A DNA stretch of 64,000 nt from Chloroflexota bacterium (GTDB lineage Bacteria > Chloroflexota > Limnocylindria > Limnocylindrales > CSP1-4), in the NCBI GenBank assembly GCA_005883615.1, contig VBEC01000019.1, forward strand, positions 45,032-109,031. Reading direction: 5' to 3'. Every line of letters starts with the position of its first letter. The stretch's first letter is position 1. This document shows positions 20,492 to 56,301 of the stretch, piece by piece. The translations under genes were made by a program, and so were the position numbers. A model generated the notes under the pieces. That model did not search any database. It saw only the letters and a list, made by a program, of their open reading frames with translations, and had not been told where the DNA came from.

Positions 20492-20592
20492 CGCTACCGT
20501 TGAGGTCATGCGGCCTCAGATCTCGGAGGCGAACTGCACGGGTCGCGAGATCGTGCTCCGTCGTCACGTTGACCCGCCCAAGTGGCGCTTGT

Positions 20593-20608: not shown

Positions 20609-20689
20609 CGGCTGGCAAGGAGCGGCCATGGTTCGAGGGTGCCCTCGCCAATGGCAGCCTGCGGCGCCACCCGGACTGGCGGTCGCCCG

Positions 20690-21652: not shown

Positions 21653-22049
21653 CCCGGAGCGGCAGGCCGAATTCCTGAAGACCATGCCCAACGCGGTTCT
21701 GGCAACGAACCGCTTGCGAGGCGGGCCGCAAGTCACTCCGAACTGGTACCTCTGGACCGGCGAGTCATTCCTTATCAGTACCGCGGCGTGGACGGCGAAA
21801 GTCAGGAACGTCTTGCGCGACCCCAACGTGAGCCTGTGCATTGACGATCCGGTGAGCGGCGACTACGTCGCGATCTACGGTCACGCCTCCGTGATCGACG
21901 GCGCGGCGGCTCAAGGTCCGACCCTGGAGCTCATTCGCAAATATCGCGCCGAGCCCGACGTCATCCCGCATTGGGACCGGATCAACGCCGATAATGACCG
22001 AGTCATCATCGCGGTCGATCCAGAACGGGTCCTCTGGCGGGACCACTGA
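21636..22049 (+). CDS. PPOX-class F420-dependent enzyme (TIGR03618-like)
   Basis: Starts MVPKPSPERQAEFLKTMPNAVLATNRLRGGPQVTPNWY. An SD (AAGGAG) is present, and the gene overlaps the upstream PPOX gene by 17 nt. Confidence 0.8.
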   Translation: MVPKPSPERQAEFLKTMPNAVLATNRLRGGPQVTPNWYLWTGESFLISTAAWTAKVRNVLRDPNVSLCIDDPVSGDYVAIYGHASVIDGAAAQGPTLELIRKYRAEPDVIPHWDRINADNDRVIIAVDPERVLWRDH

Positions 22050-24087: not shown

Positions 24088-24156
24088 CGATCGATCATTC
24101 CATCTCGATTGTCGAGAGTGCGGCAAGCGGGTGTCAACGCACCGCCAGGCTGCACG

Positions 24157-25218: not shown

Positions 25219-25328
25219 GGCATGACCTCGAGCGATGCGACATGTAGCGCTGACTCGCGCCAATGAGGCGAGCCATCTCGTTTCGTCGACAATAGGATGG
25301 CGACTGGACTCTTGTAGGGCGTGGTGAG

Positions 25329-26449: not shown

Positions 26450-27625
26450 TCACTCGCCGGCTTCGCGCCTGGACATCGAGTCCGCGTGGGCACGGACGAA
26501 GGCCTCGTCGACATCCACGCCAAGACCAGGACCGCTCGGAATCGTCAGCCAGCCGTCCGCGGGAGCGAACGCATCCACGAGCAGCCGCTCGCGCCACGGG
26601 TTCTCGTCGACGCCAAACTCGAGCAGCGGGACCAGGCTGGCCGGCGAGGCCGTGGGATCGGGCGTGACGGCCAGGACCTGGAGGGCGGCGGCGATGCCGA
26701 TCGCCGAATTCGAGGTGTGCGGCATGCTGGCAATGCCGTAGATCCGCGCCAGGGCACCGACGAACACAGCCTCCCCGACACCACCGACGATCACCGGCTC
26801 GGGCTGGACCAGGTCGACCGCCCTGCGTGCCAGGAACTCGGCGGCTGCCGGCCGACTCATGAGCACCTCGCCACCCGAGAGCGTGATCTCGAGGGCTTCG
26901 GCAAGACGCTCGTACGCGGCGTAGCCACCCCATTGATTCAAGGGCTCCTCGAACCACAGGAACCCGAGATCTCCCAGGATCTTGCCCATCCGCACAGCCC
27001 CACCGAAGGTGTAGCCGGCGTTTCCGTCCGCCGCCAGATCCAGGCTCGACGAAAGGTCCCGGCGCAACCTCTCGAGGAGCGCCTTCTCCCTGGCGATCGG
27101 ATACCGCCCGATCCGCAGCTTCATGACGCCGAAGCCCGCCTCGACCACGGCGTTGGCCTCACGCGGCCAGGTCAGCTCCGGATCCTCTCCCTCCACATAC
27201 CCGCCTGACGCGGCATAAAGCTTCACGCGGTCGCGGACCGACCCGCCGTACAGGGTGGCGACCGAAACTCCCAGCTGACGGGCACGGAGGTCGTCCAGCG
27301 CGATGGCCAGCGCGGATCGCGCGTATGGGCCACCCCCAGCCCAGCGGACCTCCGCCTGGGTTCGCAGTATGTCGCCGGCTGGCCTGCCGAGCACGATGGG
27401 CGCAAGGTCTCGCAGGGTCTCGACAATGCCGGGTACGAGGTAACTCTCCCCCCATCCAACGACGCCGTCTCGGTCGGTCAGTTTGACCAGCACGTATTCG
27501 TGGCCGGAGGCCCACGCAATCGACGGTCCGCGACGCGGGCGGATGGGATGGCGAAGCGTAAACGTCTCGAGCCTGACCACAGATCGAGCGCTCGTGGGCG
27601 CCCGCAGCCGAACGTCAGTAGCCAC
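26450..27625 (-). CDS. mandelate racemase/muconate lactonizing enzyme (enolase superfamily) family dehydratase
   Basis: LVKLTDRDGVVGWGES capping-domain motif and a barrel carrying KLRIG, LAADGNAGYT and FEEP metal ligands. Confidence 0.9.
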   Translation of the reverse strand: MATDVRLRAPTSARSVVRLETFTLRHPIRPRRGPSIAWASGHEYVLVKLTDRDGVVGWGESYLVPGIVETLRDLAPIVLGRPAGDILRTQAEVRWAGGGPYARSALAIALDDLRARQLGVSVATLYGGSVRDRVKLYAASGGYVEGEDPELTWPREANAVVEAGFGVMKLRIGRYPIAREKALLERLRRDLSSSLDLAADGNAGYTFGGAVRMGKILGDLGFLWFEEPLNQWGGYAAYERLAEALEITLSGGEVLMSRPAAAEFLARRAVDLVQPEPVIVGGVGEAVFVGALARIYGIASMPHTSNSAIGIAAALQVLAVTPDPTASPASLVPLLEFGVDENPWRERLLVDAFAPADGWLTIPSGPGLGVDVDEAFVRAHADSMSRREAGE

Positions 27626-28652
27626 GCACGGGATCGACGACGTTGATCAATGGCCGGCCGTTCGTGAACCGTCGCAGATTCTCCGCAACGAGGTCGCGCA
27701 GGGCAGTCCCCGCCTCGGAGCCCGACACGTGGGGTGTGAGGATCGCGCCGGGCGCGTTCCAGAGAGGGCTGTCCGGGGGAAGGGGCTCCTCGTCGAATAC
27801 GTCCAGCACCGCCCCCCCCAGGCGATGTTGGGTGAGCGCCTCGAGCAGCGCGGTCTGCTCGATCACCGGTCCGCGACCGGTATTGATGATCCACGCGTCC
27901 GCCCGGAGAGCGGCGAGCACTTGCCGGTCGACCAACCCGCGTGATTCGGGCGTAAGGGGAACGGTCACGGCCACGAAGTCGGCCTCGGCCGCGGTCTCAT
28001 GCAGGCGGTCCAGGCCCACGATCTTCTCGGGAATGGAACCATCGGGGTCGCCCGTCCCGGGCGCGCGGAATGAATCGTCGACCCGCTTCTCGGGGCGGGC
28101 CGTCACCGCAAGGACCCGCATCCCGAAAGCCGCGGCAAGGCGTGCAATTTCCCGCCCTATGCCGCCATACCCGAGAATGACCAGCGTGGTCCCCCGGACG
28201 GGCCGGCCGGTGAACCGGTTCTCATCCTCGGGCCAACGGCGGTCTCGCTGCAATTCACGCCGGGCGTCTACCTGCTCGGTAACGCGCAGGATCGCGCCCA
28301 TGACGTACTGCCCGATGGCGGGCGCATAGACCCCCCGCGCGTTCGTCAAGGTCACTGCCCGCGGCCACTGTCCTGAACCGAGCAGGTGTTCAACGCCTGC
28401 GGACAGGACCTGCTGCCAGCGCAGGTCAGGCGCCTTTCGCGGGTCGCTCGGGCGGTGCTGCGCGATCAGCCCGACCACCCCCGGCCCGACAGCGTCGTCG
28501 ACCGCTTGCTGGTCCATGCCGGGGGCGAGCCAGAGCTCAAAGCCGGCATCGACGGTGTCCCGAAGCACGTCGATGTCGTGCCGGTCGAAGCGGAAGGCGA
28601 GGGCGATCTGCCCACCGCGGGTCGCCGGCTCAGACTGGGCTCGCGCGGTCAC
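27615..28652 (-). CDS. D-isomer-specific 2-hydroxyacid dehydrogenase family protein
   Basis: GYGGIGREIARLAAAFGM NAD-binding motif and catalytic-region residues R, E and H. The GTG start overlaps the MocA stop in the pattern GTGA. Confidence 0.8.
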   Translation of the reverse strand: MTARAQSEPATRGGQIALAFRFDRHDIDVLRDTVDAGFELWLAPGMDQQAVDDAVGPGVVGLIAQHRPSDPRKAPDLRWQQVLSAGVEHLLGSGQWPRAVTLTNARGVYAPAIGQYVMGAILRVTEQVDARRELQRDRRWPEDENRFTGRPVRGTTLVILGYGGIGREIARLAAAFGMRVLAVTARPEKRVDDSFRAPGTGDPDGSIPEKIVGLDRLHETAAEADFVAVTVPLTPESRGLVDRQVLAALRADAWIINTGRGPVIEQTALLEALTQHRLGGAVLDVFDEEPLPPDSPLWNAPGAILTPHVSGSEAGTALRDLVAENLRRFTNGRPLINVVDPVRGY

Positions 28653-29701
28653 GCCGGGCCGGGCGAGAGCGGGAAGGTCACGACTCGATGCTCCGCGGCC
28701 GATGTCGACGCGGCCTGGGCCATCTCGATGGCTGCCCTGCCGTCGACCCCGGTGATGCGCGGCGGACGGCCGCCGCGAAGGTCGTCGACGAAGCCCTGGA
28801 CTTGCCGGGCAGTGTTCGCAACTCGACGGGGATCGCGAGGCTTGAACTCCGGAATTGTCCAACTTGGGAGCTCCCAGACCCGCACGTCGCGCTTGCCCGT
28901 CACCAGCTCCACGCGGTCGAGGTCCCAGAAGATCGAGCCCTCGGAGCCGACGACCAGGTACTGGTTGTTCCGCCCGGTCCCAAGGCCGGACGGGGGGACC
29001 TCGTAGCACAGCAGGATCTGGGCGACGACGCCATTGGAGAGGCGGAACTGCACGCAGGCGGTCGGCCCCTCGAGCGGCAGGCCCGTGAAGTTCTCGTAGT
29101 CGGAGTAGACCCTCACCGCCTCAGCGCCCGTGAACCAGCGAATGGCATCGCAGCAGTGAGAGCCCCAGTCCAGAAAGGCGTCGCCCTCGCCCGGGAGGTA
29201 TGACCAGTGGTTGCCGGGATCGATACCCAGGCCCGGGATGACGCTCATCGGCCGCAGGTAGCGGATCTCGCCGATGAGGCCCTGGTCGACGTACTCCTTC
29301 GCCCGCATCGACATCTCCATGTGGCGGGTCTGCTTGGCGATGGTGAGCTGGACGCCAGCAGCCCGGCTGGCGTCGATGATCAGGTCGCACTCGGCGACAT
29401 TGAGCGCCATCGGCTTTTCCAGATAGACGTGCTTGCCAGCCGTGGCTGCCGCGAGTGCCAAGGGCAGATGCGTCGAGTGCGGCGTGGCAATGATCGCGAC
29501 GTCGACGTCGGGTCGATCGAGCAGGGCTCCGACCGAGGGCGCCGCAGGCACTCCGAACTCGCCGGCCAGCGCGTCGGCTCGTGACCCGAGTGCGATCGCG
29601 ACAAGCCGCCCGCCAGTCACCTGGGTCGTCAGCGCATCGCCGTAGACCCTGGCCATGTTGCCGGACCCAAGGATCCCAAATCCGACGTCGTCGCCAGTCA
29701 T
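28649..29701 (-). CDS. Gfo/Idh/MocA family oxidoreductase
   Basis: Starts MTGDDVGFGILGSGNMA and has an EKPMALN motif. Confidence 0.9.
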   Translation of the reverse strand: MTGDDVGFGILGSGNMARVYGDALTTQVTGGRLVAIALGSRADALAGEFGVPAAPSVGALLDRPDVDVAIIATPHSTHLPLALAAATAGKHVYLEKPMALNVAECDLIIDASRAAGVQLTIAKQTRHMEMSMRAKEYVDQGLIGEIRYLRPMSVIPGLGIDPGNHWSYLPGEGDAFLDWGSHCCDAIRWFTGAEAVRVYSDYENFTGLPLEGPTACVQFRLSNGVVAQILLCYEVPPSGLGTGRNNQYLVVGSEGSIFWDLDRVELVTGKRDVRVWELPSWTIPEFKPRDPRRVANTARQVQGFVDDLRGGRPPRITGVDGRAAIEMAQAASTSAAEHRVVTFPLSPGPA

Positions 29702-29711
29702 CGCGTCCTCG

Positions 29712-30941
29712 TCATGCGTACTCGATGTTCCCGGGTCGGAAGGGATATGCGGCGATGGTCTCGGGCAGGAGTGTCACACCGAGGCCCGGTGCGGTTGGCG
29801 CCTCGAGCATCCCGTCGACGAGCCGGGGCGGGTCGATGAGCAGCTCCTCGCGGATGTTGTTGGGTGCCAGAGCGTACTCGACGTACCTGGCATTTGGGCT
29901 GGCGAATGCGACGTGGAGGTTGGCCATGAACCCGGGCCCGACTGCCCCCCCGGTGTGCACGATCAGGCCTGCATGGTGCTCCTCGGCCATCGCGGCCACA
30001 CGACGGCAGGGTCCCACCCCGCCGACATGGGTGGCATCAGGCTGCACATAGTCGAGGGCGCCCATCTGCAACCACTGGGCGAACTCCGCCTCACCTGTGA
30101 GGCACTCTCCGCCGGCGATCGGGACACGAGTCAGCCTCCGAAGCTCGGCGTATCCAGCCGGGTCGTCATAGCGCAGCGGCTCCTCGTAGAAGAGGAGATC
30201 GAATTCCTCGATCGCGCGCGCCAGGTCGAGGGCCGTGCGGCGAGACCATGGCTCGCGCACCTGCACCGCGTGGCCGTCGATCGCCAACTCGACTCCTTGC
30301 CCGAGGGTCGCGCGCAGCCCCGCGAACTTGGCTCGTTCGTCCTCTATTCGGTCACCCGTCGTGCCGGCATGCCACGTGCCATACGGCGGCGGGACGTTCC
30401 CGGTCCACAGCCCTCCCGGCCGATCGGTGAAACCGGTACCGAGCTTGAGAGCTCGAAAGCCCAAGCCGATGTAGAGCTGCGCCTGCTCCACGGTTTTTTC
30501 GACTGGCCAGGTTCCGGTACCACCCGACGCGTACAGGGGGAGCCGGGCGTGGGCCGCTCCGCCCAGCAGCGCATGGACCGGTTTACTGGCCGCCTTGCCG
30601 GCGAGGTCCCAGAGTGCCATCTCGACTCCCGACAGCACCGAGACCGCCAGCCCGACGCGGCCCCACCATAGCGAGCGCTGGTACAGCTCATCGTAGACTC
30701 GTTCGGGCTGGAGGGGGTCCAGCCGCAGGTCCACCAGCAAGCTGCGGTAGTAGTCGACCAGGGGCGGCACGACCTCCGGGCAGAAGTAGCCCATCACCGT
30801 CTCGCCGAGTCCGTCGAGCCCTTCATCCGTCTCGACCCGGATCAGGGCTGCGGTGCGCACGAACTCGGTTCCCTGCACCCAGAACGGATCGCCGGTCCAG
30901 GGCGCGGTGATCAGGATGGTCTTGAGGTCAGTGACCTTCAT
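29712..30941 (-). CDS. enolase superfamily (MR/MLE, D-galactonate/rhamnonate dehydratase-like) enzyme
   Basis: Starts MKVTDLKTILITAP and has ALWDLAGKA, AIDGH and FYEEP motifs. Confidence 0.9.
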   Translation of the reverse strand: MKVTDLKTILITAPWTGDPFWVQGTEFVRTAALIRVETDEGLDGLGETVMGYFCPEVVPPLVDYYRSLLVDLRLDPLQPERVYDELYQRSLWWGRVGLAVSVLSGVEMALWDLAGKAASKPVHALLGGAAHARLPLYASGGTGTWPVEKTVEQAQLYIGLGFRALKLGTGFTDRPGGLWTGNVPPPYGTWHAGTTGDRIEDERAKFAGLRATLGQGVELAIDGHAVQVREPWSRRTALDLARAIEEFDLLFYEEPLRYDDPAGYAELRRLTRVPIAGGECLTGEAEFAQWLQMGALDYVQPDATHVGGVGPCRRVAAMAEEHHAGLIVHTGGAVGPGFMANLHVAFASPNARYVEYALAPNNIREELLIDPPRLVDGMLEAPTAPGLGVTLLPETIAAYPFRPGNIEYA

Positions 30942-30975
30942 ATCGTCAAGCGGACAGCGAGTCCGGCCGCTCGTG

Positions 30976-32016
30976 TCATGCGGGCGGGCGGATCACGATA
31001 TCGCGTGGTGTCGCGCTGGTGGCCGCCACCCCACAGAGTGCCGCATCCTCGGCCAGCTCTGCGGCGATCGAGCGGAGGACCCGCCGGACGCCTGCCGTCC
31101 CGCCGAGCGCCAGGCCCCACATCACCGGGCGACCCACCGTGACCGCGCGTGCCCCCAGTGCAAGCGCGGTCAGGGCGTCCGAGCCGCTTCGGATCCCGCC
31201 ATCGAGATAGATCTCAGCCGACTCACCGACCGCGGCCACGATCTCCGGCAGGGCATCGATCGTCGCGACCGCCCGGTGGAGCTGACGGCCGCCATGGTTT
31301 GAAACGATGATGCCGCGCGCCCCACTGTTGACCGCTCTTCTGGCATCGTCGGGGTGGAGGATGCCCTTTGGAACGATCGGTAGCGTGGTCCTGGCCGCCA
31401 GCCACTCGAGATAGGACCATGTGTTGCCCGCATCGAGGCCTGGCGACTCCTCGAAGTGGCCGAAGCTGAGGCCCGCAGGAAGCCGGAAACCCGCCCGAGG
31501 CGGCGTGTGAGCGACCCCGATCGGCGTGTTCACGAGGGGCACGATCGCGCGGCATCCTGCCGCTTCCGCCCGCTCCACGACCCGGGCCAGGGCGTCGCGA
31601 TTATCCCAGTTGTAGAGCTGGAACCACAGTGTCGCGTCCGGCGCGGCGCTGCGAATCTCCTCGACCGAGGTCGTCGCATTCACGGCGACGATCAAGGCCG
31701 CTCCCACTTCGGCGACCGCACGCGCCGTTGCAATCTCACCTTCTTCGTCCACCACCCGCTGGAGGGCCAACGGAGCAACCAGCAGCGGGACCTCGAGCGG
31801 AGTACCGAGCAGGGTGACCGCAGTGGATACAGTAGAAACGTCTTCCAGCACGTGCGGCCTCATGCGCCACCGGCGGAAGGCAGCAACGTTGTCAATCGCC
31901 GATTGTTCGTCTCCGGCTCCCGATCGGATCCATTCGTAGACCGGGGTTTCGAGGACGAGCCGGGCGACGTCGCCGAAGCTGTCGAGCGGGATCCTATCCA
32001 GCAGCCGGTCGCTCAC
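30976..32016 (-). CDS. FMN-dependent alpha-hydroxy acid oxidase/dehydrogenase (glycolate oxidase / L-lactate oxidase family)
   Basis: WFQLY, VSNHGGRQL and DGGIRSGSD motifs are present. Confidence 0.9.
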   Translation of the reverse strand: MSDRLLDRIPLDSFGDVARLVLETPVYEWIRSGAGDEQSAIDNVAAFRRWRMRPHVLEDVSTVSTAVTLLGTPLEVPLLVAPLALQRVVDEEGEIATARAVAEVGAALIVAVNATTSVEEIRSAAPDATLWFQLYNWDNRDALARVVERAEAAGCRAIVPLVNTPIGVAHTPPRAGFRLPAGLSFGHFEESPGLDAGNTWSYLEWLAARTTLPIVPKGILHPDDARRAVNSGARGIIVSNHGGRQLHRAVATIDALPEIVAAVGESAEIYLDGGIRSGSDALTALALGARAVTVGRPVMWGLALGGTAGVRRVLRSIAAELAEDAALCGVAATSATPRDIVIRPPA

Positions 32017-32141
32017 GACGACATGACCCGAGCGGTCACAATTTCCTCCCCAGAACGCTCAACTGCGAGCGCGACTGGATACTCCTGGCACCCTTCAGCG
32101 GAGTGTAGACAATCCTTTGCTGGCCACACCCCCATGGCTGG

Positions 32142-34148
32142 CTAGCCAAAGCCGGAAGCCTGGTCGCTCCGGTCGGCGGCCAGGTGGCGATCCAGCCACG
32201 TGTCGATGATCGACCTGCGGGCGGCGCGCCGGCTGGGGCGGCCGAAGAGATTCACCAGGTGGCCTTCGCCCGGGATACGCACTTGGCGAACGTCCCGACC
32301 AAGGCTTCGAAGGGCGCCGAACAGTTCATCGCTCTGGCTGGTTGGGCAGTTCTGATCAAGCTCGGCGTGCAGGATGAGGAGAGGCGTTCGGATGCGATCG
32401 ACATACCGGATGGGTGACCGCGTGAGGTAGGCCTGCGGACGGTTCCAGGGCGTCCCGCCGAGCTCCGAGCGCCAGAAGGCCGGCCCGCTCGGGCCAGCGT
32501 ACGCGGCTACGAGGTCGCTGAGGCTGTTCTCGGTCACGGCGACCCGAAAGCGGTTCGTGTGGGCAACGGCCCAGTTCGTCATGTAGCCGCCGTAGCTCTC
32601 GCCCATGATCGCCAGTCGGCTCGGATCGACGCTGGCGGTGGCGATTGCCGACTCGACGAGGCCCATGAGGTCACGGTAGTCGCCGCCGCCCCAGTCGCCG
32701 CGAATGGAGGTCGCGAATGCGGCGCCGTAGCCCTGGCTGCCGCGGGGATTGCCGGTCAACACCGCGTAGCCCCGGGCCGCGACGCGCTGCACCTCCAAGG
32801 CGAAGCGTTCTCCAACCGGGTAGTGAGGCCCGCCATGCACCTCCACGATGAGGGGCACGGGCCCATCGGCCCCGGGGGGCCCGGGTGGCAGCGTGAGCCA
32901 GCCCGACACTTCAAATCCGTCGGGGGACTGGTGCCGGATCGATCGTGGGAGGCTGAGGTCCAAGTCACGCATCCAGCTCTGGTTGACGCGGCTCAGCGCG
33001 CGTTCGTCCATCCCGTCGCCGCGAACGACCGCCACCTCGCCGGGATCGAGCGGCGTGGAGGCGACGAATGCAACGACGTCGGCGGCTCGGGCGACGGCGA
33101 ATGCGAGGCATGCCCGTTGCCCGTCAACTACGCGTCGCCGGCCACCATCGCGCCCGAATGCGTCCACGCCGCTGACGCCTCCGTCGGCGTAGGCGACAAG
33201 GATGGAGCGCCCATCGGCCGACCAGGCGAGATCGGGCGTGCCGAAACCGCGCTCGTCCTCGCCACGAACAACCAGCCCCAGGCTTCTGTCGATGTCGCTG
33301 ATGCGTTCGGCAGGGCCACCGCGAGCATTCACCACCCAAAGCTCGACGTTCTCGCCCTGCGCGTCGGCATGGCGATGGCCAAGGAAGGCGATCTCGGAGC
33401 CGTCCGGCGACCACGCGAGTGCTCGGATCGGTCCGGCCTCCGTAACGAGTCGCCGCCGGCCCGAGCCATCGGGGCGAACGATCCACAGGCCAGTTCGAGT
33501 GCTCCATTCCCGGTCCTGGCGGTGGCTCGACAGGAAGGCGATGAAGTCGCCGCGCGGCGACCACGTGGCGGCCCACTCCTCCCAGGGCTCCTGCGTCAGG
33601 CACGTCGCGGGCCCGCCTCGCAACGGCTGAACCCAGACGCGCGTCCCGGCGGGTCTTGGCCGAACTCCGACAGCGTCGACGCGGTAGCCCATCGATTGAA
33701 TCTCGTACGGTCGATCGTTGCCGGGTGGCGAATCGGGCTGCAGGACGACGGCAACCAGGCGCTCTCCGTCGGGCGCCCACTCGACAGAGCGAACGACGCC
33801 CGTAACCCTCGCGGGAGCGCGAGCAGCGCCAGCATCCACATCGAGGACTCTGCTCGTCGTCTGATCGCCACGGGTCGAGACGACAGCGAGCCGCCGTCCG
33901 TCAGGCGCCCATCGAGGTGCTCGATCGGCGACGCCCATCGAGGTAAGACAGCCCCCCCGGCTTCCGTCGATCTCCCGCCAGTGGACCTCGTAGGCCATTC
34001 GATCGGCCTCAGGGTCGAGGTACGAGACCTCGAAGGCTATACGTCGTCCATCGGGCGACAGGTCGGGGTCTCCGACCCAACGAATCCGGTACCAGTCGTC
34101 GGCTCCGACGACCCGACCTCGCTCCTGCATCGATCGCGTTCCAGTCAA
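32142..34148 (-). CDS. S9 family peptidase (prolyl oligopeptidase / acylaminoacyl-peptidase-like) with an N-terminal beta-propeller
   Basis: Catalytic GESYGGYMT, a Ser-Asp-His triad segment, and no signal peptide. The start overlaps the ADH stop in an ATGA pattern. Confidence 0.9.
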   Translation of the reverse strand: MTGTRSMQERGRVVGADDWYRIRWVGDPDLSPDGRRIAFEVSYLDPEADRMAYEVHWREIDGSRGGCLTSMGVADRAPRWAPDGRRLAVVSTRGDQTTSRVLDVDAGAARAPARVTGVVRSVEWAPDGERLVAVVLQPDSPPGNDRPYEIQSMGYRVDAVGVRPRPAGTRVWVQPLRGGPATCLTQEPWEEWAATWSPRGDFIAFLSSHRQDREWSTRTGLWIVRPDGSGRRRLVTEAGPIRALAWSPDGSEIAFLGHRHADAQGENVELWVVNARGGPAERISDIDRSLGLVVRGEDERGFGTPDLAWSADGRSILVAYADGGVSGVDAFGRDGGRRRVVDGQRACLAFAVARAADVVAFVASTPLDPGEVAVVRGDGMDERALSRVNQSWMRDLDLSLPRSIRHQSPDGFEVSGWLTLPPGPPGADGPVPLIVEVHGGPHYPVGERFALEVQRVAARGYAVLTGNPRGSQGYGAAFATSIRGDWGGGDYRDLMGLVESAIATASVDPSRLAIMGESYGGYMTNWAVAHTNRFRVAVTENSLSDLVAAYAGPSGPAFWRSELGGTPWNRPQAYLTRSPIRYVDRIRTPLLILHAELDQNCPTSQSDELFGALRSLGRDVRQVRIPGEGHLVNLFGRPSRRAARRSIIDTWLDRHLAADRSDQASGFG

Positions 34149-35254
34149 GAGGCGTCGTACGCCAGAACGACGGTCGGTGGTCGATCCTCTGCCTGCAGCA
34201 GGTCGTAGGCCTCGGGGGCCCGATCGAACGGGACCGTCACCGGCGAAAGTGGCGCCACCTTCACCTTGCCTTCATCGAGCAAGCGCAGGAACGCGGCCTG
34301 GTTGCGGTTCTCGGTCCAGCGCACCCAGCCGATGGGGTAGTCACTGTTGCCTTCCTCGTACACCGGGTCATAGCGGCCCGGCCCGTAGGCACGGACCGGC
34401 CGGATAGTCACCTCGTTCTCGAACATGCGCTGGCGGTCGATCTGCCAGCCGAACTGACCCAGTGCGACGACATTTCCCCTCTGCCGGCAGAGATCGAACG
34501 AAAGGTTGAGGGGTTCTTCCGATTCAGTCTGGACCGCGAGGATCACCGAATCGGCTCCGAACCCGTCGGTGGCCCCCCGGACGATTTCCAGCGGGTTATT
34601 GCGGCGAGGATCGTGGACATCAGGGATTCCGAGCTCCCGCGCAAGTTGCAACCGTCGCCCATCGAGATCGAAGCCAATGACCCGGAGGCCCGCGGCCCCT
34701 GCGATCTGCCCGGCAAGCAGCCCGAGGAGGCCAAGGCCATAGATCACGACGGTCTCGCCGAACTGGCAGCGGGTCTCGCGCACGGAGGCCATTCCGATCG
34801 CCCCAAGCGTCACGAAGGCGGCGTCCCGCAGGGGGACCTGATCTGGAACCCGGACTGTCAGGTTGCGCGGGACCGCGACTCGCTCGGCGTGATGAGCACA
34901 CTGACTGCCGGAGCACGCCACGGCGTCGCCCGGCGACAGGTCGAGCACGTCGGCGCCTACTGCCAGCACGCGCCCGGCGAGACTGTAGCCAATCGAGAAG
35001 TGACCCGGCAGGACAGGCCGCGGCAGGGGTCCCCGTCGAACGCCAGCGTTTCGGATCTTGGGCCAGTGCGGAGGGTCGCCCGGATACTCGCTCGCGGTGA
35101 ATGTGGGGTCGCCGGAGCCTTCGATGAAGTACCGTTCCGTTCCGGCGCTGATGGCCGAGAAATGGGTCTGGACGAGGACGTCACCGGCGCGCAGCTCGGG
35201 CTCCGGCACGTCGCGTACCACCGCCCGCCCGCCCGCCGCGAGGACGCGCTTCAT
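34145..35254 (-). CDS. zinc-binding alcohol dehydrogenase (MDR) family protein
   Basis: An N-terminal GroES-like domain with the Cys/His zinc ligands, and a GLGLLGLLAGQ Rossmann motif. Confidence 0.85.
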   Translation of the reverse strand: MKRVLAAGGRAVVRDVPEPELRAGDVLVQTHFSAISAGTERYFIEGSGDPTFTASEYPGDPPHWPKIRNAGVRRGPLPRPVLPGHFSIGYSLAGRVLAVGADVLDLSPGDAVACSGSQCAHHAERVAVPRNLTVRVPDQVPLRDAAFVTLGAIGMASVRETRCQFGETVVIYGLGLLGLLAGQIAGAAGLRVIGFDLDGRRLQLARELGIPDVHDPRRNNPLEIVRGATDGFGADSVILAVQTESEEPLNLSFDLCRQRGNVVALGQFGWQIDRQRMFENEVTIRPVRAYGPGRYDPVYEEGNSDYPIGWVRWTENRNQAAFLRLLDEGKVKVAPLSPVTVPFDRAPEAYDLLQAEDRPPTVVLAYDAS

Positions 35255-35375
35255 GACCGCCGAGCTCGATTCCGGAGGATGCCGGCCAGGCCCGCCGAGG
35301 CGATCCCGACTTGCGGGTGGCCGCGTGCGCCGGACGCCGCTCGGGCAGCCGCCAGAGGCATCACCTCGACCCGTA

Positions 35376-36566
35376 TCAGGCCGTGACCGCGACGGGGTGT
35401 GCCGAGCTCGAAACCAACCCGCTATCTACCGCCCGCTGACGGATCTGCTGTTCGTCCGGCTCCACACCCAATCCTGGCCCGCTCGGGATCTCGAACCAGC
35501 CTTCGACCATCGATAGCGGCCGGGTCAACAGGTCGGTCCTGAACGGGTTCTCGGTGGTGTCGTATTCGAGCAGCGGGGCGAACGTCGAGAGGGACCTCGT
35601 CGGGTCGGGCAGCAGCGCAAGCACCTGGAGGGTCGCTGCGAGCATGATCGCACCGCCCCACATGTGGGGGACGCACCCGACACCGCGGAGCTGAGCGAGA
35701 TCGGCGATGAGCTGGGCCTCTCCAACGCCGCCGCAGATCGACACGTCCGGCTGGACGATGTCGAAGATCCCACGTTCGAAACAGGCCTGGGCTTCCCTCC
35801 GATCGGCGATGCCCTCCCCGCCGGCCAGGGCAATGTCGAGCGCATCGTGGATGCGCTCGTAGCCCGCGTAGCCGTCTTGAGGCGCTGGCTCCTCGAACCA
35901 GACGAAGCCGAGGCGTTCCAGCCCATGACCCATTTCTATTGCCTGCGGGAGCGTGTAGGCAGCGTTCCCGTCGGCCATCAGCTCGATGCCGGGCGGTAGC
36001 CGCGACATGGCTGTCTCGATGGCGGCAAGCTCGTGTCTGATCGGGTGGCGACCGACGCGCAGCTTGATGGCCCTAAAGCCCTCGGCGGCCAGCGATGGCA
36101 GGTCGCGCTGCCAGGTCAGCGTCGGGTCGACCTCGCGCTCGCCGGCGCCCTCGCCCTCGACCTCGTATCCGGCACTCGAGGCGTAAGCTCGAACCCGATT
36201 GCGGACCGGCCCGCCGTACAGCCCCGCCAGCGGCATCCCGAGCTGCCGCGCCCGCAGATCATCCAGCGCGATCGACATCGCGCTCGTCGCGAGATTGCTG
36301 CCCGAAGCCGCGGCCACGTCACGCCAGATCGAATTGGCCGCGAGTGGGTCTCGAGCGACCACCGTTTTCGCCGCACCTGCAATCGCGGCAGTAACGCCCG
36401 GTTCGAGGTAGGTCTCACCCCAGCCTGTGATTCCATCCGAGTCGGTGAGCTTGACGAGGACGCACTCCCGCCTTCGGTAGGTCCAGATCGACGGGCCGCG
36501 CGGCGCCGACATGGAATGGGTCAGGACGAACCACTCCGCCCGTTCGATGCGAGAGCCCCGGCTCAC
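35376..36566 (-). CDS. enolase superfamily (MR/MLE) family dehydratase
   Basis: LVKLTDSDGITGWGETY, KLRVG, LMADGNAAYT and FEEP motifs. The GTG start overlaps the ABC ATPase stop in the pattern GTGA. Confidence 0.85.
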   Translation of the reverse strand: MSRGSRIERAEWFVLTHSMSAPRGPSIWTYRRRECVLVKLTDSDGITGWGETYLEPGVTAAIAGAAKTVVARDPLAANSIWRDVAAASGSNLATSAMSIALDDLRARQLGMPLAGLYGGPVRNRVRAYASSAGYEVEGEGAGEREVDPTLTWQRDLPSLAAEGFRAIKLRVGRHPIRHELAAIETAMSRLPPGIELMADGNAAYTLPQAIEMGHGLERLGFVWFEEPAPQDGYAGYERIHDALDIALAGGEGIADRREAQACFERGIFDIVQPDVSICGGVGEAQLIADLAQLRGVGCVPHMWGGAIMLAATLQVLALLPDPTRSLSTFAPLLEYDTTENPFRTDLLTRPLSMVEGWFEIPSGPGLGVEPDEQQIRQRAVDSGLVSSSAHPVAVTA

Positions 36567-37741
36567 GCGTTGATCCGCTCGCCGGTCTCGAGTGCGAAGA
36601 GATGTGTCCGCCCGGCAACGATCTCGCCGGTGACCGGCTGGCCGATCTCGACCCCGAAGTCGGGGGCGGCCCGCGCGACGATGGTCGCCTCGCCGGCGAC
36701 CAGTTCGACGAACGTGTCGGAGCCGATCGGTTCCTTGAGCCCGACAGTCGCCGTGAAGCTGCGGCCCGAGCCGGTCCCGCCGTTCGGCGAGATGCGGACG
36801 TCCTCAGCACGGACGCCGAGGGCGACCTGCGTGCGATCGGTCTCGGCCAAGCGGAGCTCACCAGGCCGTCCGACCCGGACACGGATCGTGCCGTCGTCCG
36901 AGACGAACTGGACGGCGTCGGCGTCGGCCTCGAGTCGGCCGCGCACCAGGCTCATTTTCGGCTTGCCAACGAAGGTGGCGACGTACATGTTGCGTGGCCG
37001 GCCGTAGACCTCGGCCTGGCTCCCGTACTGGACGAGCTTGCCCTCGCTCATGACGGCGATGGCGTCGGACAGCGTCATCGCCTCCTCCTGGTCGTGGGTG
37101 ACGAACACGCTGGTCGTTCCGAGTTGCAGGTGGAGGTGCTTCACCTCCGTCCGCATCCGGCTGCGCAGCGCGGCGTCGAGGTTGCTGAACGGCTCGTCGA
37201 GCAGGAACACCAACGGCTGCTTTACGAGGGCTCGACCGAGCGCCACCCTCTGCTGCTGGCCGCCCGAGAGCTGACTCGGCTTCCGGCGGAGCAGGTGCGC
37301 GATGTCGAGCATCTCGGCGACGACTTTGACGCGCTGCTCGATCTCCTGCCTGGAGCGGCGCTGGAGCTTGAGGCTGAAGGCGATGTTGTCGAACGCCGTC
37401 ATGTGCGGGTAGAGGGCGTAATTCTGGAAGACCATCGCCATCCGTCGCTCGTTTGGCGGGACGCCGGTGATGTCCTGCTCCCCGAGATGCACGCTGCCCG
37501 TATCCGGCTGATCCAGACCGGCGATCAGGTTGAGCGTCGTGCTCTTGCCGCACCCGGAGGGCCCGAGCAGGGTCACGAACGAGCCAGCCGGGATCTCCAG
37601 GGTAAGCTCGTCGACGGCGCGGACCTTCCCGAAGTGGCGCCCAAGACGGTCGAGGCGGAGCGAGGCGCTGCTGATTATCGTCGCTCTCTCCAACGACGGG
37701 CTGGCGCACATGGCGAACGGCGGCGCCGGCAGCGTCGCCAC
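36563..37741 (-). CDS. ABC transporter ATP-binding protein (carbohydrate importer, MalK/UgpC-like)
   Basis: Walker A (GPSGCGKST), LSGGQQQRVALGRAL, Walker B (LLDEP), and a C-terminal TOBE-like domain. The start is either GTG 37741 or ATG 37711. Confidence 0.9.
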   Translation of the reverse strand: MATLPAPPFAMCASPSLERATIISSASLRLDRLGRHFGKVRAVDELTLEIPAGSFVTLLGPSGCGKSTTLNLIAGLDQPDTGSVHLGEQDITGVPPNERRMAMVFQNYALYPHMTAFDNIAFSLKLQRRSRQEIEQRVKVVAEMLDIAHLLRRKPSQLSGGQQQRVALGRALVKQPLVFLLDEPFSNLDAALRSRMRTEVKHLHLQLGTTSVFVTHDQEEAMTLSDAIAVMSEGKLVQYGSQAEVYGRPRNMYVATFVGKPKMSLVRGRLEADADAVQFVSDDGTIRVRVGRPGELRLAETDRTQVALGVRAEDVRISPNGGTGSGRSFTATVGLKEPIGSDTFVELVAGEATIVARAAPDFGVEIGQPVTGEIVAGRTHLFALETGERINA

Positions 37742-37755: not shown

Positions 37756-37775
37756 GTAGATTGTCGACAATCTAC
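37756..37775. promoter_or_regulatory. 20-bp perfect palindrome GTAGATTGTCGACAATCTAC immediately upstream of the ABC ATPase gene; operator-like
   Basis: Read directly in the sequence. It is the best copy of the recurring ATTGTCGACAAT motif. Confidence 0.6.
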
Positions 37776-37940
37776 GACCGGCCCGATGCCGCGTCAAGGT
37801 TATGCCAGGCGACCGTCCAGTGGCAGTGCTCAGGGCTCCAGCTGTGGGACACCCTGCTGACCCACTGACCGGCACACCCGGGCATAGAAGACGGCGCCCA
37901 CGTCGCCGTGAGCGCCGTCCAATGCGCGAGGAACGGAGCG

Positions 37941-42634: not shown

Positions 42635-42901
42635 GAAGGATCCGCTGCCTCCTCCGAATGGGGTCGTCGGCAATCATCATCGGGCCGGTAGGACGTGTCA
42701 AACCGATCACGCGCAGTCCAGAGGCATGCCTCTCGCTGCAAGGCCTCCTGTGCCCTGTCTCGTGGCGTTCGGCCAGACGGGCACGGCCGCTCGCCAGATG
42801 GGGTAGTGGGCTCATGGGGCACCCGCGAGGCGATTTGACCGCGGGGTATCCTGACGCGGCGGTCTGGCTCCATGAGAGCCTGCGGCGGAGGGCGATGCTC
42901 C

Positions 42902-49178: not shown

Positions 49179-49253
49179 GAGCGGCGACGACCCTGCTTTC
49201 ACAACAAAAGCCGGTGCGATAATCGCGGGGCAACGGTCGCCCAGGAGGTGCAG

Positions 49254-49982
49254 GTGGCGTCAGCCCGTCCGGCTTTCTCGCCTGCTCCCCGGCGGGTGCT
49301 TCGCCACGACGTTCTCGACAGCCTTCACGCTCGCATCCTGAACGGACAGTTGCCGCCGGGTACCAGGCTCCTCGAGGTGGGGCTCTCCCAACGACTGGGT
49401 GTGAGCCGCGGCCCCGTTCGAGAAGCGATCCGTCAGCTGGAGCAGCAGGGGCTGGTCGAGTTTTTCCCCCACCGTGGGGCAATCGTCGTCGGGGTAGCCG
49501 ACGACGAGGTCGGCCCGATCTACGACGTCCGAGCCGTGCTGGAAGCGAGAGCCTTCGCTCGAGCCGCGAGATCGGTGACGCCCGCCGACATCGCCGAGCT
49601 CAACGCCTTGATCGACGCGATGGTCCGGGCCCTCGACCGGCGCGACTACGGTTCGATCGTGGACCTCGATCTCGCATTCCACGGCCGAGTCGTCGCGCTG
49701 TCCGGCTTCCGGCTCCTCCGGCAGGTTTGGGCCAGCATCGACAGCCTCGTTCGGGGCCAGACCCGGCTCGACCTCGACAGCAGCACGACCCCGGACGAAC
49801 GCGATGCTCGTTTCCGGAAGCCCGCGCTTTCTCATCGGGAGCTGGTGGACGGGCTGAGCTCGGGGCGGCCTTCGCTCGCCGCGAATGCCGCCCGCCGGCA
49901 CATCCAGGACGCAAGCGGCCGCCTGCGCCGTGCCGGTCGCCAGGCGCCCCAACGCAGTGATAGGTCGCGGGTCAGCCGCTGA
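49254..49982 (+). CDS. GntR family transcriptional regulator (FadR/FCD subfamily)
   Basis: An N-terminal wHTH (LPPGTRLLEVGLSQRLGVSRGPVREAIRQLEQQGLV) with a C-terminal all-helical FCD-like domain. AGGAGG lies 5 nt before a GTG start. Confidence 0.85.
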   Translation: MASARPAFSPAPRRVLRHDVLDSLHARILNGQLPPGTRLLEVGLSQRLGVSRGPVREAIRQLEQQGLVEFFPHRGAIVVGVADDEVGPIYDVRAVLEARAFARAARSVTPADIAELNALIDAMVRALDRRDYGSIVDLDLAFHGRVVALSGFRLLRQVWASIDSLVRGQTRLDLDSSTTPDERDARFRKPALSHRELVDGLSSGRPSLAANAARRHIQDASGRLRRAGRQAPQRSDRSRVSR

Positions 49983-51078
49983 GGCGAAGTCGCGCGAAGC
50001 GAATGCCCTGACCGGATGGTTGGACGCACCAGAACGTCAGCAAGAGGTCTCCGTTCCGCAGCACGGCAAGCGCCGGTTCGCCGAATGCGAAGTCGCGCCA
50101 GGCGTCGTGATCGGCTGAATCGCCCGTCTGGAGCGGCGTATCGGCCCGCCAGGCCATCTCGTCTGCCAGCACGTTGAACGCTTCGTCGTCCGGCCGCGCC
50201 AGTGCAACGCGGACGCCGGCCGGCGACCGGACGCGCTGGTTATACGCGAAGGCCACGCGGCCGTCAGTTATAACGGCGAGGCTGCCCGCCTGGCCGCCGA
50301 TCCCGGTGGATCGGGTCGGCGTCCAGGTCCTGCCGCCATCGTGCGAGATCGCGTAGGCGTCTGGATAATCGCGCCCGGACCGCAGGTCCATATGCCACGC
50401 CTCGCCAAGCAACCTGCCGTCCAGGAGCTCGACAAGCCAGGATTCTGCTGCGCCGCTTTCGGGCTCATCGAAGTGCAACATCGTGCCGCTGCGCCACCTT
50501 CCGCCGCGGTCGTCGCTGGCCACCACCACGACGCGGTCGCGAGCGACGATCTGACCTCGCTCGAAGGTCGGATACGGGCAGTAGCAGGCCAGCCACCGGC
50601 CTGCGCGGGTCACGCACATGGGCCCGGCGGCCTCGGCGGCTTCGCGGCCGGCCATCGGAATGGGTGTTGGCTCCGACCAGGTCGTGCCACCGTCGATCGA
50701 CTCGGCCCACACAAGGCGGTTCGCCTTGAGGCCTTGGGTTTCCTCCGACCAGAACGACTCGCCCGGGTCGTCGATCGGAGTGGCCGTTCCGAACAGGAAC
50801 AGCGTGCCATCGGGCCCTCGGCTCAAGGAACAGAAGATCGATTCGCGACTGACCCGGTCAGGCCACACCACTCGCGGCTGCGTCCAGTTCCGGCCGCCGT
50901 CGTCTGATCCGGCCAGCACCGTGGTGAAGGCATTCACGCCCAGAGCAGGCTGGACCATGAAGCTGCACAGGAGGCGACCATCGGCTGTCACGACAGGGCG
51001 GGGTCCCGCAGCAACCGCCGTGGCGGTGCCCTGCTCACGGCGGGAGACGAACCCCTCGTCGACGACCTCGAGTCGCAC
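49972..51078 (-). CDS. BNR/Asp-box repeat beta-propeller protein (sialidase-like, intracellular)
   Basis: Asp-boxes SDDGGRNW, SIDGGTTW, SDDRGGRW and SHDGGRTW. It is a paralog of 47178 and 58529. Confidence 0.8.
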   Translation of the reverse strand: MRLEVVDEGFVSRREQGTATAVAAGPRPVVTADGRLLCSFMVQPALGVNAFTTVLAGSDDGGRNWTQPRVVWPDRVSRESIFCSLSRGPDGTLFLFGTATPIDDPGESFWSEETQGLKANRLVWAESIDGGTTWSEPTPIPMAGREAAEAAGPMCVTRAGRWLACYCPYPTFERGQIVARDRVVVVASDDRGGRWRSGTMLHFDEPESGAAESWLVELLDGRLLGEAWHMDLRSGRDYPDAYAISHDGGRTWTPTRSTGIGGQAGSLAVITDGRVAFAYNQRVRSPAGVRVALARPDDEAFNVLADEMAWRADTPLQTGDSADHDAWRDFAFGEPALAVLRNGDLLLTFWCVQPSGQGIRFARLRLSG

Positions 51079-51125
51079 GGCTCAGGACGATGCCCAGCGG
51101 GCTGCCTGAGCTCCCGCCGTGCTCG

Positions 51126-52076
51126 TCAACTGACCGGTGGCGTCCGGCCATCAAGCGCCGGCTGCGCGAGCCACTCCGCGTAGGACTCGAGCGCCTGGCG
51201 GCACGCTCGGTAATCGGCGTCGTCGAAACTCTGGTACGGCGGCAGGAGCCTGAGCGGGAAATCCTCGAGCATGCCCAGCTTGACGAGCATCTTGTCGAAC
51301 GCGCCGTCCATGTGCGGGCCTGGCCGCACGGGCTTCCACAGGTCTGTATTCAGACGTTGGAACTCAGTCTGGAGCTGGAACAGCCGCCCCACGTCTCGGC
51401 GTCGGCCAGCCCCGAAATACTCCCATGTCCGTTCCGGAGTCAGCTCGCCATACGACGATAGCAGCGAACACTCGCCGAACATCGAGCCATGAGCGAAATT
51501 CCCCTCGCCCATGAAGTGCTGCAATTCACCCGCTGTTCGAACCAGGTCTTCACCCGAATCAAGGCCGCCGCCCGTCGTCTTCGTCGCGACCAGGTTTGGG
51601 ACGACTTGGATGATGCGCGCGTAGTCCGCACCACGAAGCACGCGCTTGGTGCGCGGCAGGTTGTAATTGAGGAAGGCCGAGTCGGGGAAGGCGCCGCAGA
51701 CGTCGCCGAAGAAGCGCAGCAGCTCGTCGTCGTTCAGCGGGCCCCAGGACGGCAGGGAGATCTGGAAAGCGCGAAACCCCGCATCGTGGGCGATTCGCAG
51801 ACGCTCGACGATCGCCGGCGTCGAGAGTCCAATCACGCCGACCATGGCGCTGACGCCGGGCTGGGCGGTCGCCTCCCGGAAGACGCCTACGACACGCTCG
51901 AAGCGCGCGGTGTCGACGGCATATCCTTCGCCACCTGTCCCGAAGACGTAGACGTGGCGGAAGCCCGCGGCGAGGACGAGCCGAACTTCCTCTCGGAATA
52001 GCTCCTCGTTCATCGCGTACGATTCGTCCCACGGCACGGGGCAGGAGACGAGAACTGCCTGCGGATAGCGCGGCAT
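51126..52076 (-). CDS. DHDPS/DapA/NanA family lyase or dehydratase (paralog of 17152-18042)
   Basis: GTGGEGYAV and VIGLS motifs. I infer a start at MPRYPQAVLVSCPVPWD. Confidence 0.8.
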   Translation of the reverse strand: MPRYPQAVLVSCPVPWDESYAMNEELFREEVRLVLAAGFRHVYVFGTGGEGYAVDTARFERVVGVFREATAQPGVSAMVGVIGLSTPAIVERLRIAHDAGFRAFQISLPSWGPLNDDELLRFFGDVCGAFPDSAFLNYNLPRTKRVLRGADYARIIQVVPNLVATKTTGGGLDSGEDLVRTAGELQHFMGEGNFAHGSMFGECSLLSSYGELTPERTWEYFGAGRRRDVGRLFQLQTEFQRLNTDLWKPVRPGPHMDGAFDKMLVKLGMLEDFPLRLLPPYQSFDDADYRACRQALESYAEWLAQPALDGRTPPVS

Positions 52077-52180
52077 CAGCCGGAGGACATGGTCTGGGCG
52101 GGCATGATCACCTCGATCTGAAGCGGATTGCGCGACCGGTCGAGGTGCTGTCAGGCGCGCAGCCCGCACCGCTGCGCCGT

Positions 52181-52194
52181 GGATTGTAGACAAT
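52181..52194. promoter_or_regulatory. near-palindrome GATTGTAGACAATC (one central mismatch versus GATTGTCGACAATC) in the DapA-like/enolase divergent promoter
   Basis: Read directly in the sequence, 5 nt upstream of the enolase ATG. Confidence 0.45.
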
Positions 52195-52198
52195 CGAC

Positions 52199-54670: not shown

Positions 54671-54690
54671 GTACATTGTCGACAATCTAC
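54671..54690. promoter_or_regulatory. operator-like site GTACATTGTCGACAATCTAC (12-bp perfect palindromic core) upstream of the aldehyde dehydrogenase gene
   Basis: Read directly in the sequence. A half-site CTACATTGTCGAG follows at about 54793-54805. Confidence 0.55.
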
Positions 54691-54829
54691 GTTGCCCCCC
54701 ATCGAGCGTCAAGGCGCGTACTGACCACGAAACGTCCCCCGTGCCGTAACGCCACCAGGGGGCCGTACCCCGGCTCGGGAACTCGCGGGCTTCTACATTG
54801 TCGAGACGTTGTGCATGCGGAGGTGTCGA

Positions 54830-56301
<1,472 letters not shown>

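Follow-up and report, generated by a model that had tools for sequence, protein, structure and literature searches.

A recurrent palindrome before catabolic operons of a Chloroflexota bacterium, probably the operator of a FadR-type GntR repressor

The window analysed here is a stretch of 64,000 nucleotides from a Chloroflexota bacterium (GCA_005883615.1, contig VBEC01000019.1) with a G+C content of 67.7%. It carries a catabolic-looking gene island, which according to Pfam spans from about 20 kb to the right end of the window, a recurrent palindrome with the core ATTGTCGACAAT in front of several genes of this island, and one gene for a GntR-type regulator of the FadR subfamily. The first-pass annotation of this DNA had proposed that the palindrome is the operator of this regulator and ties the dispersed operons into a single regulon. 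The gene map is based on Pfam matches, with start codons refined by independent gene calls on near-identical metagenome contigs. These six loci (L001-L006) are 99.0-100% identical to the window (at least 99.8% across nearly all of the aligned length), are too similar for footprinting, and were used for gene calls only. The four strong sites, numbered as putative operators 1 to 4, their consensus promoters, and the candidate regulator are as follows.

37756-37775: putative operator 1, perfect 20-bp palindrome GTAGATTGTCGACAATCTAC, 39 bits; in the gap between the stop of the binding-protein gene (37941) and the start of the ABC ATPase gene (37741)
37769-37797, minus strand: promoter at operator 1; -35 TTGACG (37797-37792), 17-nt spacer, -10 TAGATT (37774-37769)
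54671-54690: putative operator 2, GTACATTGTCGACAATCTAC, 39 bits; in the 421-bp divergent region between the 2-hydroxyacid dehydrogenase gene (start 54408, minus strand) and the ALDH gene (start 54830, plus strand)
54684-54712, minus strand: promoter at operator 2; -35 TTGACG (54712-54707), 17-nt spacer, -10 TAGATT (54689-54684)
20591-20610: putative operator 3, GTACATTGTCGACAATGTCG, 31 bits
20569-20597, plus strand: promoter at operator 3; -35 TTGACC (20569-20574), 17-nt spacer, -10 TACATT (20592-20597); directed towards the PNPOx-like gene pair
52179-52198: putative operator 4, GTGGATTGTAGACAATCGAC, core with one mismatch, 29 bits; in the 122-bp divergent region between a DHDPS-like gene (start 52076, minus strand) and an enolase-superfamily gene (called ATG 52199, plus strand)
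At operator 4, minus strand: promoter-like sequence TTGTCC-18-TACAAT with the core as -10 box; directed towards the DHDPS-like gene
49254-49982, plus strand: candidate cognate regulator, GntR of the FadR subfamily, 242 aa, GTG at 49254 after the ribosome-binding site AGGAGG

The exact 12-mer ATTGTCGACAAT occurs three times in the whole window (at 20595, 37760, and 54675), compared with an expectation of 0.00 copies in 100 dinucleotide-preserving shuffles, and a single copy with one mismatch is located at 52183. With up to two mismatches allowed, the window contains 8 matches versus 1.04 expected, and none of the 100 shuffles reaches 8; the half-site ATTGTCGA is present 10 times versus 1.45 expected. 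All 8 matches with at most two mismatches are intergenic in a window whose non-coding share is 9.0%, while a lone half-site at 27420 is situated within a gene. The three palindromes that the first-pass annotation had listed are where it placed them, namely GTAGATTGTCGACAATCTAC at 37756-37775 (perfect over 20 bp), ACATTGTCGACAATGT at 20593-20608 (the 16-bp perfect palindrome contained in operator 3), and GTACATTGTCGACAATCTAC at 54671-54690. Its distance of 15 nt between the first of them and the ABC-ATPase operon is also correct relative to the called GTG at 37741. As for its half and variant sites, all are present, with two coordinates shifted by one (GATTGTAGACAATC occupies 52182-52195 and TGTAGACAATCC 32104-32115), and all 8 sites that it had named are intergenic on the refined map.

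To rank the sites, a weight matrix was derived from the sites of related genomes seeded with the near-exact core. It reports a strong group comprising 54675 and 37760 (39 bits each), 20595 (31), and 52183 (29), followed after a large gap by 24108 (10 bits), the coding match at 34982 (9), and 32102 (4), with 54797 (−2, more exactly −1.7) and 25282 (−2.5) as the lowest variants. The scores of 24108, 32102, 54797, and 25282 resemble those of the in-gene matches 34982 and 27416, and these four variants are therefore inseparable from background by score alone, in contrast to 52183. Rescoring with the matrix was tried as a rescue for the variant sites and failed, as their scores stay at noise level. 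No further copy of the motif was found in the 7 kb past the right end of the window, no terminator-like hairpins were found at the motif sites, and neither the Rfam nor the tRNA scan of the window gave a match.

According to promoter scans over 30 kb, there are 7 promoter-like sites, and 5 of them have the operator as their -10 box (sites 37760, 54675, 20595, 24108, and 52183). At operator 1 the -10 box is the operator flank, and the promoter faces the ATPase-enolase-ADH-S9 peptidase operon; the element CCTTGACG-N17-TAGATT is kept in relatives, as is the position of the operator before ATPase orthologues in many Chloroflexota metagenome-assembled genomes (MAGs). The promoter at 54684-54712 overlaps operator 2 and faces the 2-hydroxyacid dehydrogenase gene (53419-54408), and orthologous divergent 2-hydroxyacid dehydrogenase/ALDH pairs have the same site in about 20 MAG tiles (8-kb segments of the genome scan described below). 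Operator 3 precedes the PNPOx-like pair (20669-22049, plus strand; start taken from the independent gene calls) by 63 bp. Operator 4 is identical in locus L007, whose GntR protein is 94% identical to that of the window. Since the flank serves as the -10 box, the operator covers both this box and the transcription start, which is the classic geometry of a repressor.

Gene starts close to two of the sites vary. The ATPase alignment of several relatives starts 2-6 bp past the operator core (L021 641, L030 1972, and L073 703), and the ATPase transcripts of these relatives may be leaderless or have very short leaders. If the 2-hydroxyacid dehydrogenase starts at 54408, its leader from the operator 2 promoter is about 265 nt long, compared with about 75 bp in relatives, and the longest open reading frame (ORF) of this gene starts at 54702. 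The segment 54409-54674 is either an insertion in the leader or the result of a mis-called start.

The regulator gene encodes an N-terminal GntR winged helix-turn-helix (HTH) domain (PF00392, E 5e-15, residues 21-80 in the 244-aa reading from GTG 49248) and a C-terminal all-helical FCD effector/oligomerisation domain (PF07729, E 1.2e-22). The longer reading was abandoned: a lookup of the 244-aa form was empty, and the 242-aa form from GTG 49254 is on record. The exact protein occurs on soil-metagenome contigs only, so the DNA belongs to an uncultured organism. Its best solved relatives are GntR/FCD proteins throughout, the closest being 7XP0, for which a literature search found nothing. Among NCBIfam equivalogs none was reached, with phnR_burk as the best (129 bits versus a cut-off of 271.5). 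It is the sole transcription factor found among the window genes, and the small ORFs of two large non-coding gaps, which were inspected for other HTH proteins, look like junk; the first-pass view of it as the only plausible regulator in the window is thus supported. It is the last gene of a string running from an FG-GAP to a GNAT gene. The gap before it (49179-49253) contains a GATAAT hexamer with a weak upstream TTTCAC, which may form a weak independent promoter for the regulator gene. About 0.9-1.1 kb beyond the right end of the window, a 90-aa gene call (L130 15182-15454) with a weak FCD match and no HTH adjoins a gamma-glutamyltranspeptidase gene and may be the truncated remnant of a second GntR-type regulator.

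The motif recurs in relatives, where the first-pass annotation had suggested looking for it. Loci L008 and L009, whose GntR proteins are 55% and 52% identical to that of the window, carry the same gene families. They have the exact 12-mer in intergenic gaps before the ATPase, FMN_dh, and MFS genes and beside the aminotransferase gene, as well as a one-mismatch 12-mer before ALDH, and in L009 an exact copy is also located 55 bp upstream of the GntR orthologue.

For a wider view, GTDB with one genome per species (596 Gb in 8-kb tiles) was scanned for the exact 18-mer TASATTGTCGACAATSTA. The scan gave at least 118 tiles versus about 35 expected by chance (our uniform-composition estimate for 596 Gb), at least 66 of them Chloroflexota-like with 66-73% G+C. 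At least 25 MAG species are represented among the Chloroflexota tiles, whose consensus is GTAGATTGTCGACAATCTAC; there are several matches per contig, all within 60-100 kb, e.g., 4 tiles at 944-1040 kb of a 2.14-Mb contig. When window proteins were aligned to the tiles with tblastn, none of 109 sites fell inside the aligned coding segments, which cover 64% of bases, and 84 of the 109 have an orthologue start at most 250 bp downstream. These downstream orthologues are 2-hydroxyacid dehydrogenase (22), ALDH (21), FMN_dh (20), ATPase (16), GntR (15), MocA (12), and permease (5). A six-frame ORF/GC3 coding mask had assigned 47 of 113 sites to coding DNA; it was rejected, since intergenic gaps in 70%-GC DNA disappear under spurious long ORFs, and was replaced by the protein alignment and the independent gene calls.

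The promoter overlap is likewise conserved. Before FMN_dh, the footprint GGCTTGAC-N17-TAGATTGTCGACAATCTAC is found in about 20 species with varying surroundings, and TTGAC-N17-TAGATTGTCGACAATCTAC recurs at the ATPase, 2-hydroxyacid dehydrogenase, and MocA promoters. A TTGACA box (at least 5 of 6 positions) stands 16-18 nt upstream of the TA(G/C)ATT flank in 68 of 106 site contexts of relatives, compared with 0.5% of control positions, and a -35 box on each side was seen in only one of the 106.

Co-localisation with the regulator gene is equally recurrent. In at least 17 Chloroflexota loci, residue 15 of the GntR orthologue (44-55% identical) is 94-115 bp from the site, which places the site about 50-70 bp upstream of the start codon; there the GntR orthologue is divergent from the FMN_dh operon and shares the operator with it. 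Among the matches listed, about 48 tiles, drawn from several phyla, have a GntR/FCD gene next to the 18-mer. Outside Chloroflexota, about 30 tiles from Gamma-, Alpha-, and Deltaproteobacteria, Actinobacteria, and Firmicutes contain a GntR/FCD gene (27-35% identical) whose start is 60-130 bp away from the 18-mer.

In comparison with these relatives, the window is rearranged. Its GntR gene has been relocated and now closes the FG-GAP...GNAT string, FMN_dh now stands behind the ATPase-enolase-ADH-S9 peptidase genes in the same orientation, and a MocA gene (MocA_c), which relatives equip with an operator of its own, lies within this ATPase string. The window has four strong operators versus seven or more in relatives.

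Several further details of the related loci were recorded. The stretch 12000-20000 of L008 contains many short gene calls (split aminotransferase, 2-hydroxyacid dehydrogenase, and luciferase-like genes), which suggest frameshift errors of a long-read MAG contig rather than real pseudogenes. At permease promoters, the operator variant ATTGTTGACAAT has the -35 box TTGACA inside the operator (L020 1636, L021 3856, and L127 2238), and the variant ATTGTAGACAAC directly follows TTGACA (L062 2034, L106 666, L118, and L126). In Actinobacteria (Actinomadura, Williamsia, and Acidimicrobiia) the 18-mer is found beside a GntR/FCD gene, a class-III aminotransferase gene (35-37% identical to that of the window), or both (L121 4449, L060 2972, L058 1769, L128 4167, L045 1696, and L112 3408), which looks like a small regulon of its own that uses the same operator. 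Gammaproteobacterial tiles have two cores 52-64 bp apart before the GntR/FCD gene (L043 1324/1376, L067 440/492, L105 5949/6001, and L123 1769/1832), whereas Chloroflexota have single sites; by analogy with the Pseudomonas MAG locus L034 described below, these double cores are probably operators of GntR-type PrpR proteins.

The closest characterised counterpart is the GntR-type PrpR of Pseudomonas (PA0797 of P. aeruginosa) and other Gammaproteobacteria, whose predicted operator is the 12-nt palindrome ATTGTCGACAAT, 84 bp upstream of prpR; the protein bound the prpR upstream region in an electrophoretic mobility shift assay and represses the 2-methylcitrate (prp) operon (PMC9765439). The two systems share an identical operator core, the combination of winged HTH and FCD domains, and the helix motif SRGP, and the PrpR operator lies upstream of its regulator gene, as do the sites of relatives' orthologues of the window GntR. 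In the Pseudomonas locus L034 the order is site, GntR, prpB, prpC, with prpB and prpC above curated cut-offs. However, identity between the window GntR and the PrpR-type proteins of L034, L123, and L067 reaches only about 30%, which does not amount to orthology. According to Pfam, with L034 as positive control, the window contains no prpB, prpC, or acnD (methylisocitrate lyase and methylcitrate synthase families). The putative targets of the window GntR are instead enolase-superfamily, MocA, DHDPS, ALDH, and ABC-transporter operons, and Chloroflexota have many operators per island versus one or two for PrpR.

The motif also follows the general rules of the subfamily. Motifs of FadR-subfamily regulators are TKGT/ACMA palindromes, usually with a spacing of 3 nt and with 2 nt in the GntR, HpxS, HypR, MdcY, PrpR, and UxuR groups; TTGTCGACAA is listed 85 times among FadR-type sites in the supplement (Suvorova et al. 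2015, PMC4494728). With its TTGT/ACAA boxes and 2-nt spacing, the window motif ATTGT-CG-ACAAT has this shape, which agrees with the GntR-family operator form seen in the first-pass annotation. It resembles the 2-nt groups in boxes, in placement in divergent regions, and in the frequent accompanying half-sites, but none of these groups comes from this Chloroflexota lineage or has this gene content (PMC4494728). The same study links HTH position 39 to the central bases, with Asn or Thr going along with A/T, and finds G/C to be avoided at the K of TKGT when Pro40 is present (PMC4494728). The recognition helix of the window GntR is SRGPVREA, found also in PrpR-type and other motif-associated regulators, and judged by these correlations its Gly39/Pro40 fits TTGT-CG-ACAA. 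The only Chloroflexi FadR-type regulator treated there is HyuR of Chloroflexus, Roseiflexus, and Sphaerobacter, with the motif ATATTGTATACAATCT and the helix SRTPVRQA (PMC4494728). HyuR shares phylum and subfamily with the window GntR, and its motif is very similar including the flanks; the differences are a TA-TA centre versus C-G in the window, Thr versus Gly at HTH position 39, and other targets. As for sugar-acid metabolism, DgoR and other FadR-type repressors of E. coli control operons with an enolase-superfamily acid-sugar dehydratase and an aldolase and are substrate-induced. DgoR differs in having a 3-nt operator spacing and a single operon, while the window enzymes are below every equivalog cut-off.

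Motif enrichment, intergenic placement, conservation, promoter overlap, and co-localisation with the regulator gene across species were all observed, and they point to the same explanation: the palindromes very probably serve as operators for a GntR repressor of the FadR subfamily that is encoded at 49254-49982. We infer from the sequences that this protein binds them, represses the adjoining promoters, and is subject to induction by an effector. In the proposed mechanism, a GntR dimer would bind the inverted repeat TTGTC-GACAA and its flanks. At operators 1, 2, and 3, the flank TA(G/C)ATT would be the -10 hexamer of a TTGAC-N17 promoter of the sigma-70 type, the operator would cover about -12 to +8, and the bound repressor would block RNA polymerase at the -10 box and the transcription start until a pathway metabolite at the FCD domain releases it. 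The four operators would control the ATPase-enolase-...-FMN_dh string, the 2-hydroxyacid dehydrogenase/ALDH divergon, the DHDPS/enolase divergon, and the PNPOx-like pair. The three gene groups of the island concerned are listed below.

26450-37741, minus strand: gene string downstream of operator 1; MalK-like ATPase, enolase superfamily, zinc alcohol dehydrogenase (Zn-ADH), S9 peptidase, FMN_dh, enolase superfamily, MocA, 2-hydroxyacid dehydrogenase, enolase superfamily
54830-60907, plus strand: ALDH operon on the ALDH side of operator 2 and of the half-site 54797; ALDH, class-V aminotransferase, MocA, BNR_2, amidohydrolase
49972-53431: divergon around operator 4; BNR_2 and DHDPS-like genes (minus strand, 49972-52076) and an enolase-superfamily gene (plus strand, 52199-53431)

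The 26450-37741 string is presumably co-transcribed, and FMN_dh is probably part of the operator 1 operon. The single regulon envisaged in the first-pass annotation is supported, most clearly for the operons at the four strong operators, and orthologues of several of the genes concerned have the same motif in relatives; its half and variant sites are less certain.

A number of observations weigh against the repressor interpretation or limit its reach. No operator is present in the 75-bp gap before the window GntR gene (49179-49253), unlike in relatives, and neither the promoter region 42635-42901 of the regulator-bearing FG-GAP operon nor the permease/binding-protein operon has a convincing site. 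Operator 4 abuts the called enolase ATG, which makes the gene start or the geometry there uncertain. The promoter calls are consensus matches only, and the genome scan sees exact 18-mers only, so that regulon size and restriction to the island are lower-bound impressions. Finally, the weight matrix under-rates degenerate sites because it was seeded with the near-exact core.

Among other explanations, it is unlikely, though worth weighing, that the GntR protein owns the sites and acts at some of them as an activator or dual regulator. FadR itself is a dual regulator, there is no -35 box on the ALDH side of 54675 while the half-site 54797 lies upstream of ALDH, and the geometry of operator 4 is atypical. 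Wherever promoters are recognisable, however, the operator lies across both the -10 box and the start point, a repressive geometry, and the closest characterised analogue, P. aeruginosa PrpR, is a repressor (PMC9765439).

The sites could also be operators of another transcription factor encoded outside the window and unrelated to the local GntR, which appears quite improbable. The window GntR has no site directly upstream, and the view of this genome is confined to 64 kb plus 7 kb on the right. Nevertheless, the cross-phylum adjacency of the motif to GntR/FCD genes makes an outside factor unlikely: at least 17 Chloroflexota loci have the start of the orthologous GntR gene at a distance of 50-70 bp from the site, and a GntR/FCD gene stands beside the 18-mer in about 30 further tiles from other phyla. 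Moreover, a GntR/FCD protein of Pseudomonas binds the same core (PMC9765439), motif shape and HTH residues obey the rules of the FadR subfamily, and no second HTH protein was found in the window.

Still a little less credible is a mere promoter element, i.e., a -10 or discriminator sequence of a housekeeping or alternative sigma factor that looks palindromic owing to divergent promoters. At most sites the TA(G/C)ATT flank does act as a -10 box with TTGAC 17 nt upstream, and the lone half-sites GACAAT/TACAAT could be plain -10 boxes. However, the halves are equally conserved although a single one of the 106 contexts has -35 boxes on both sides, so promoter function alone cannot explain the symmetric core. 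The invariant core TTGTCGACAA lies past the -10 box, in a part of the promoter that has no sequence requirement; at relatives' permease promoters it covers the -35 box or the spacer instead; and the motif accompanies GntR genes into low-GC phyla. As for remnants of a dispersed repeat of the REP (repetitive extragenic palindromic) or MITE (miniature inverted-repeat transposable element) type without regulatory role, recurrent short perfect intergenic palindromes are typical of REP elements, but this origin can be virtually dismissed, given that the similarity ends at about 20-24 bp plus the -35 box with unrelated flanks, that copies are single, not clustered, and all promoter-proximal, and that they occupy orthologous promoter positions in at least 25 species with proteins only 50-85% identical.

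The repressor interpretation bears on the island as a whole, which comprises five enolase-superfamily paralogues, four MocA-type dehydrogenases, three BNR_2 proteins, two D-2-hydroxyacid dehydrogenases, and two DHDPS-like genes (a third is located at 17152-18258). It also includes an FMN-dependent hydroxyacid oxidase, ALDH, aminotransferases, PLP-dependent dehydratases, a beta-aspartyl-peptidase-like protein, an FG-GAP/ASPIC protein, a MetE-like protein, and a sugar-type ABC transporter. These paralogous genes are densely packed at 22000-64000. Window proteins are 50-86% identical to Chloroflexota MAG proteins, and the gene set is co-conserved there. NCBIfam searches with 20 island proteins gave nothing above any curated cut-off and no pathway name. 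Since no island gene matches a characterised equivalog, the regulon would delimit an undescribed catabolic pathway, with the operator defining its gene set. It is tentatively proposed, at chances slightly under even, that a catabolic island of several operons and about 35-95 kb is under the control of a single FadR-type repressor whose specificity is PrpR-like, and that this regulon delimits such a pathway. This island would be conserved in at least 25 uncultured soil Chloroflexota species and carry 5-6 enolase-superfamily paralogues, 4 MocA, DHDPS-like, BNR_2, FG-GAP/ASPIC, and MetE-like proteins, and a CUT1-type ABC transporter.

The kind of repressor and the ATTGTCGACAAT specificity are known, and the regulatory side is what a specialist expects of a FadR-type repressor; new is the link to an uncharacterised Chloroflexota island. 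The value lies in the operator as a sequence-defined handle on about 30 linked genes in a phylum with almost no experimental genetics. The co-conserved genes, including several enolase-superfamily paralogues, are a tractable target for the discovery of pathway and enzyme functions. In addition, the specificity of proteobacterial PrpR appears common to distant FadR-type regulators in Chloroflexota, Actinobacteria, and other phyla.

Apart from the strong sites, the window contains several weak, half, or decayed ones.

24104-24123: weak or half site CGATTGTCGAGAGT, 10 bits; 21 bp upstream of the class-III aminotransferase gene (start 24087, minus strand)
24137-24108, minus strand: promoter TTGACA-18-GACAAT at site 24108, directed towards the aminotransferase, with the left half-site doubling as -10 box
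25278-25297: weak or half site TTCGTCGACAATAG between divergent MocA genes (starts 25218, minus strand, and 25329, plus strand); −2.5, noise level
32098-32117: probable decayed ancestral operator GCGGAGTGTAGACAATCCTT, 4 bits; 85 bp upstream of FMN_dh (start 32016, minus strand)
54793-54812: half site CTACATTGTCGAGACG, 22 bp upstream of ALDH (54830)
42663-42674, minus strand: very weak candidate ATTGCCGACGAC, matrix score −5.6, a three-mismatch remnant

For 24104-24123 no orthologous footprint was obtained. At the place equivalent to 32098-32117, relatives have the GGCTTGAC-N17-TAGATTGTCGACAATCTAC footprint, whereas the window copy ATTGTCTACACT no longer has the -35 box and deviates at 7 of 20 positions. 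A second, promoter-proximal site before ALDH is frequent among relatives. The candidate at 42663-42674 directly follows the -10 box of a TTGACA-17-GATGAT promoter of the fused-permease operon and is probably non-functional, while relatives carry real sites at the equivalent permease position. Two half-sites coincide with -10-like hexamers, and the half-sites in general could represent weak or decayed operators, or else simple promoter boxes.

Two other regions of the window deserve mention. A non-coding stretch of 690 bp (5489-6178), without a credible ORF or Rfam match, precedes a PPDK_N/PEP-utiliser (rifampicin-phosphotransferase-like) gene, and the weak motif-like ATCGTCGACCAT at 6058 within it is probably due to chance. 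Positions 126-3152 hold three adjacent paralogues with a RibD_C domain (dihydrofolate-reductase-like) followed by two Zn-ADH genes, which lie away from the region with the motif and have no relation to the island.

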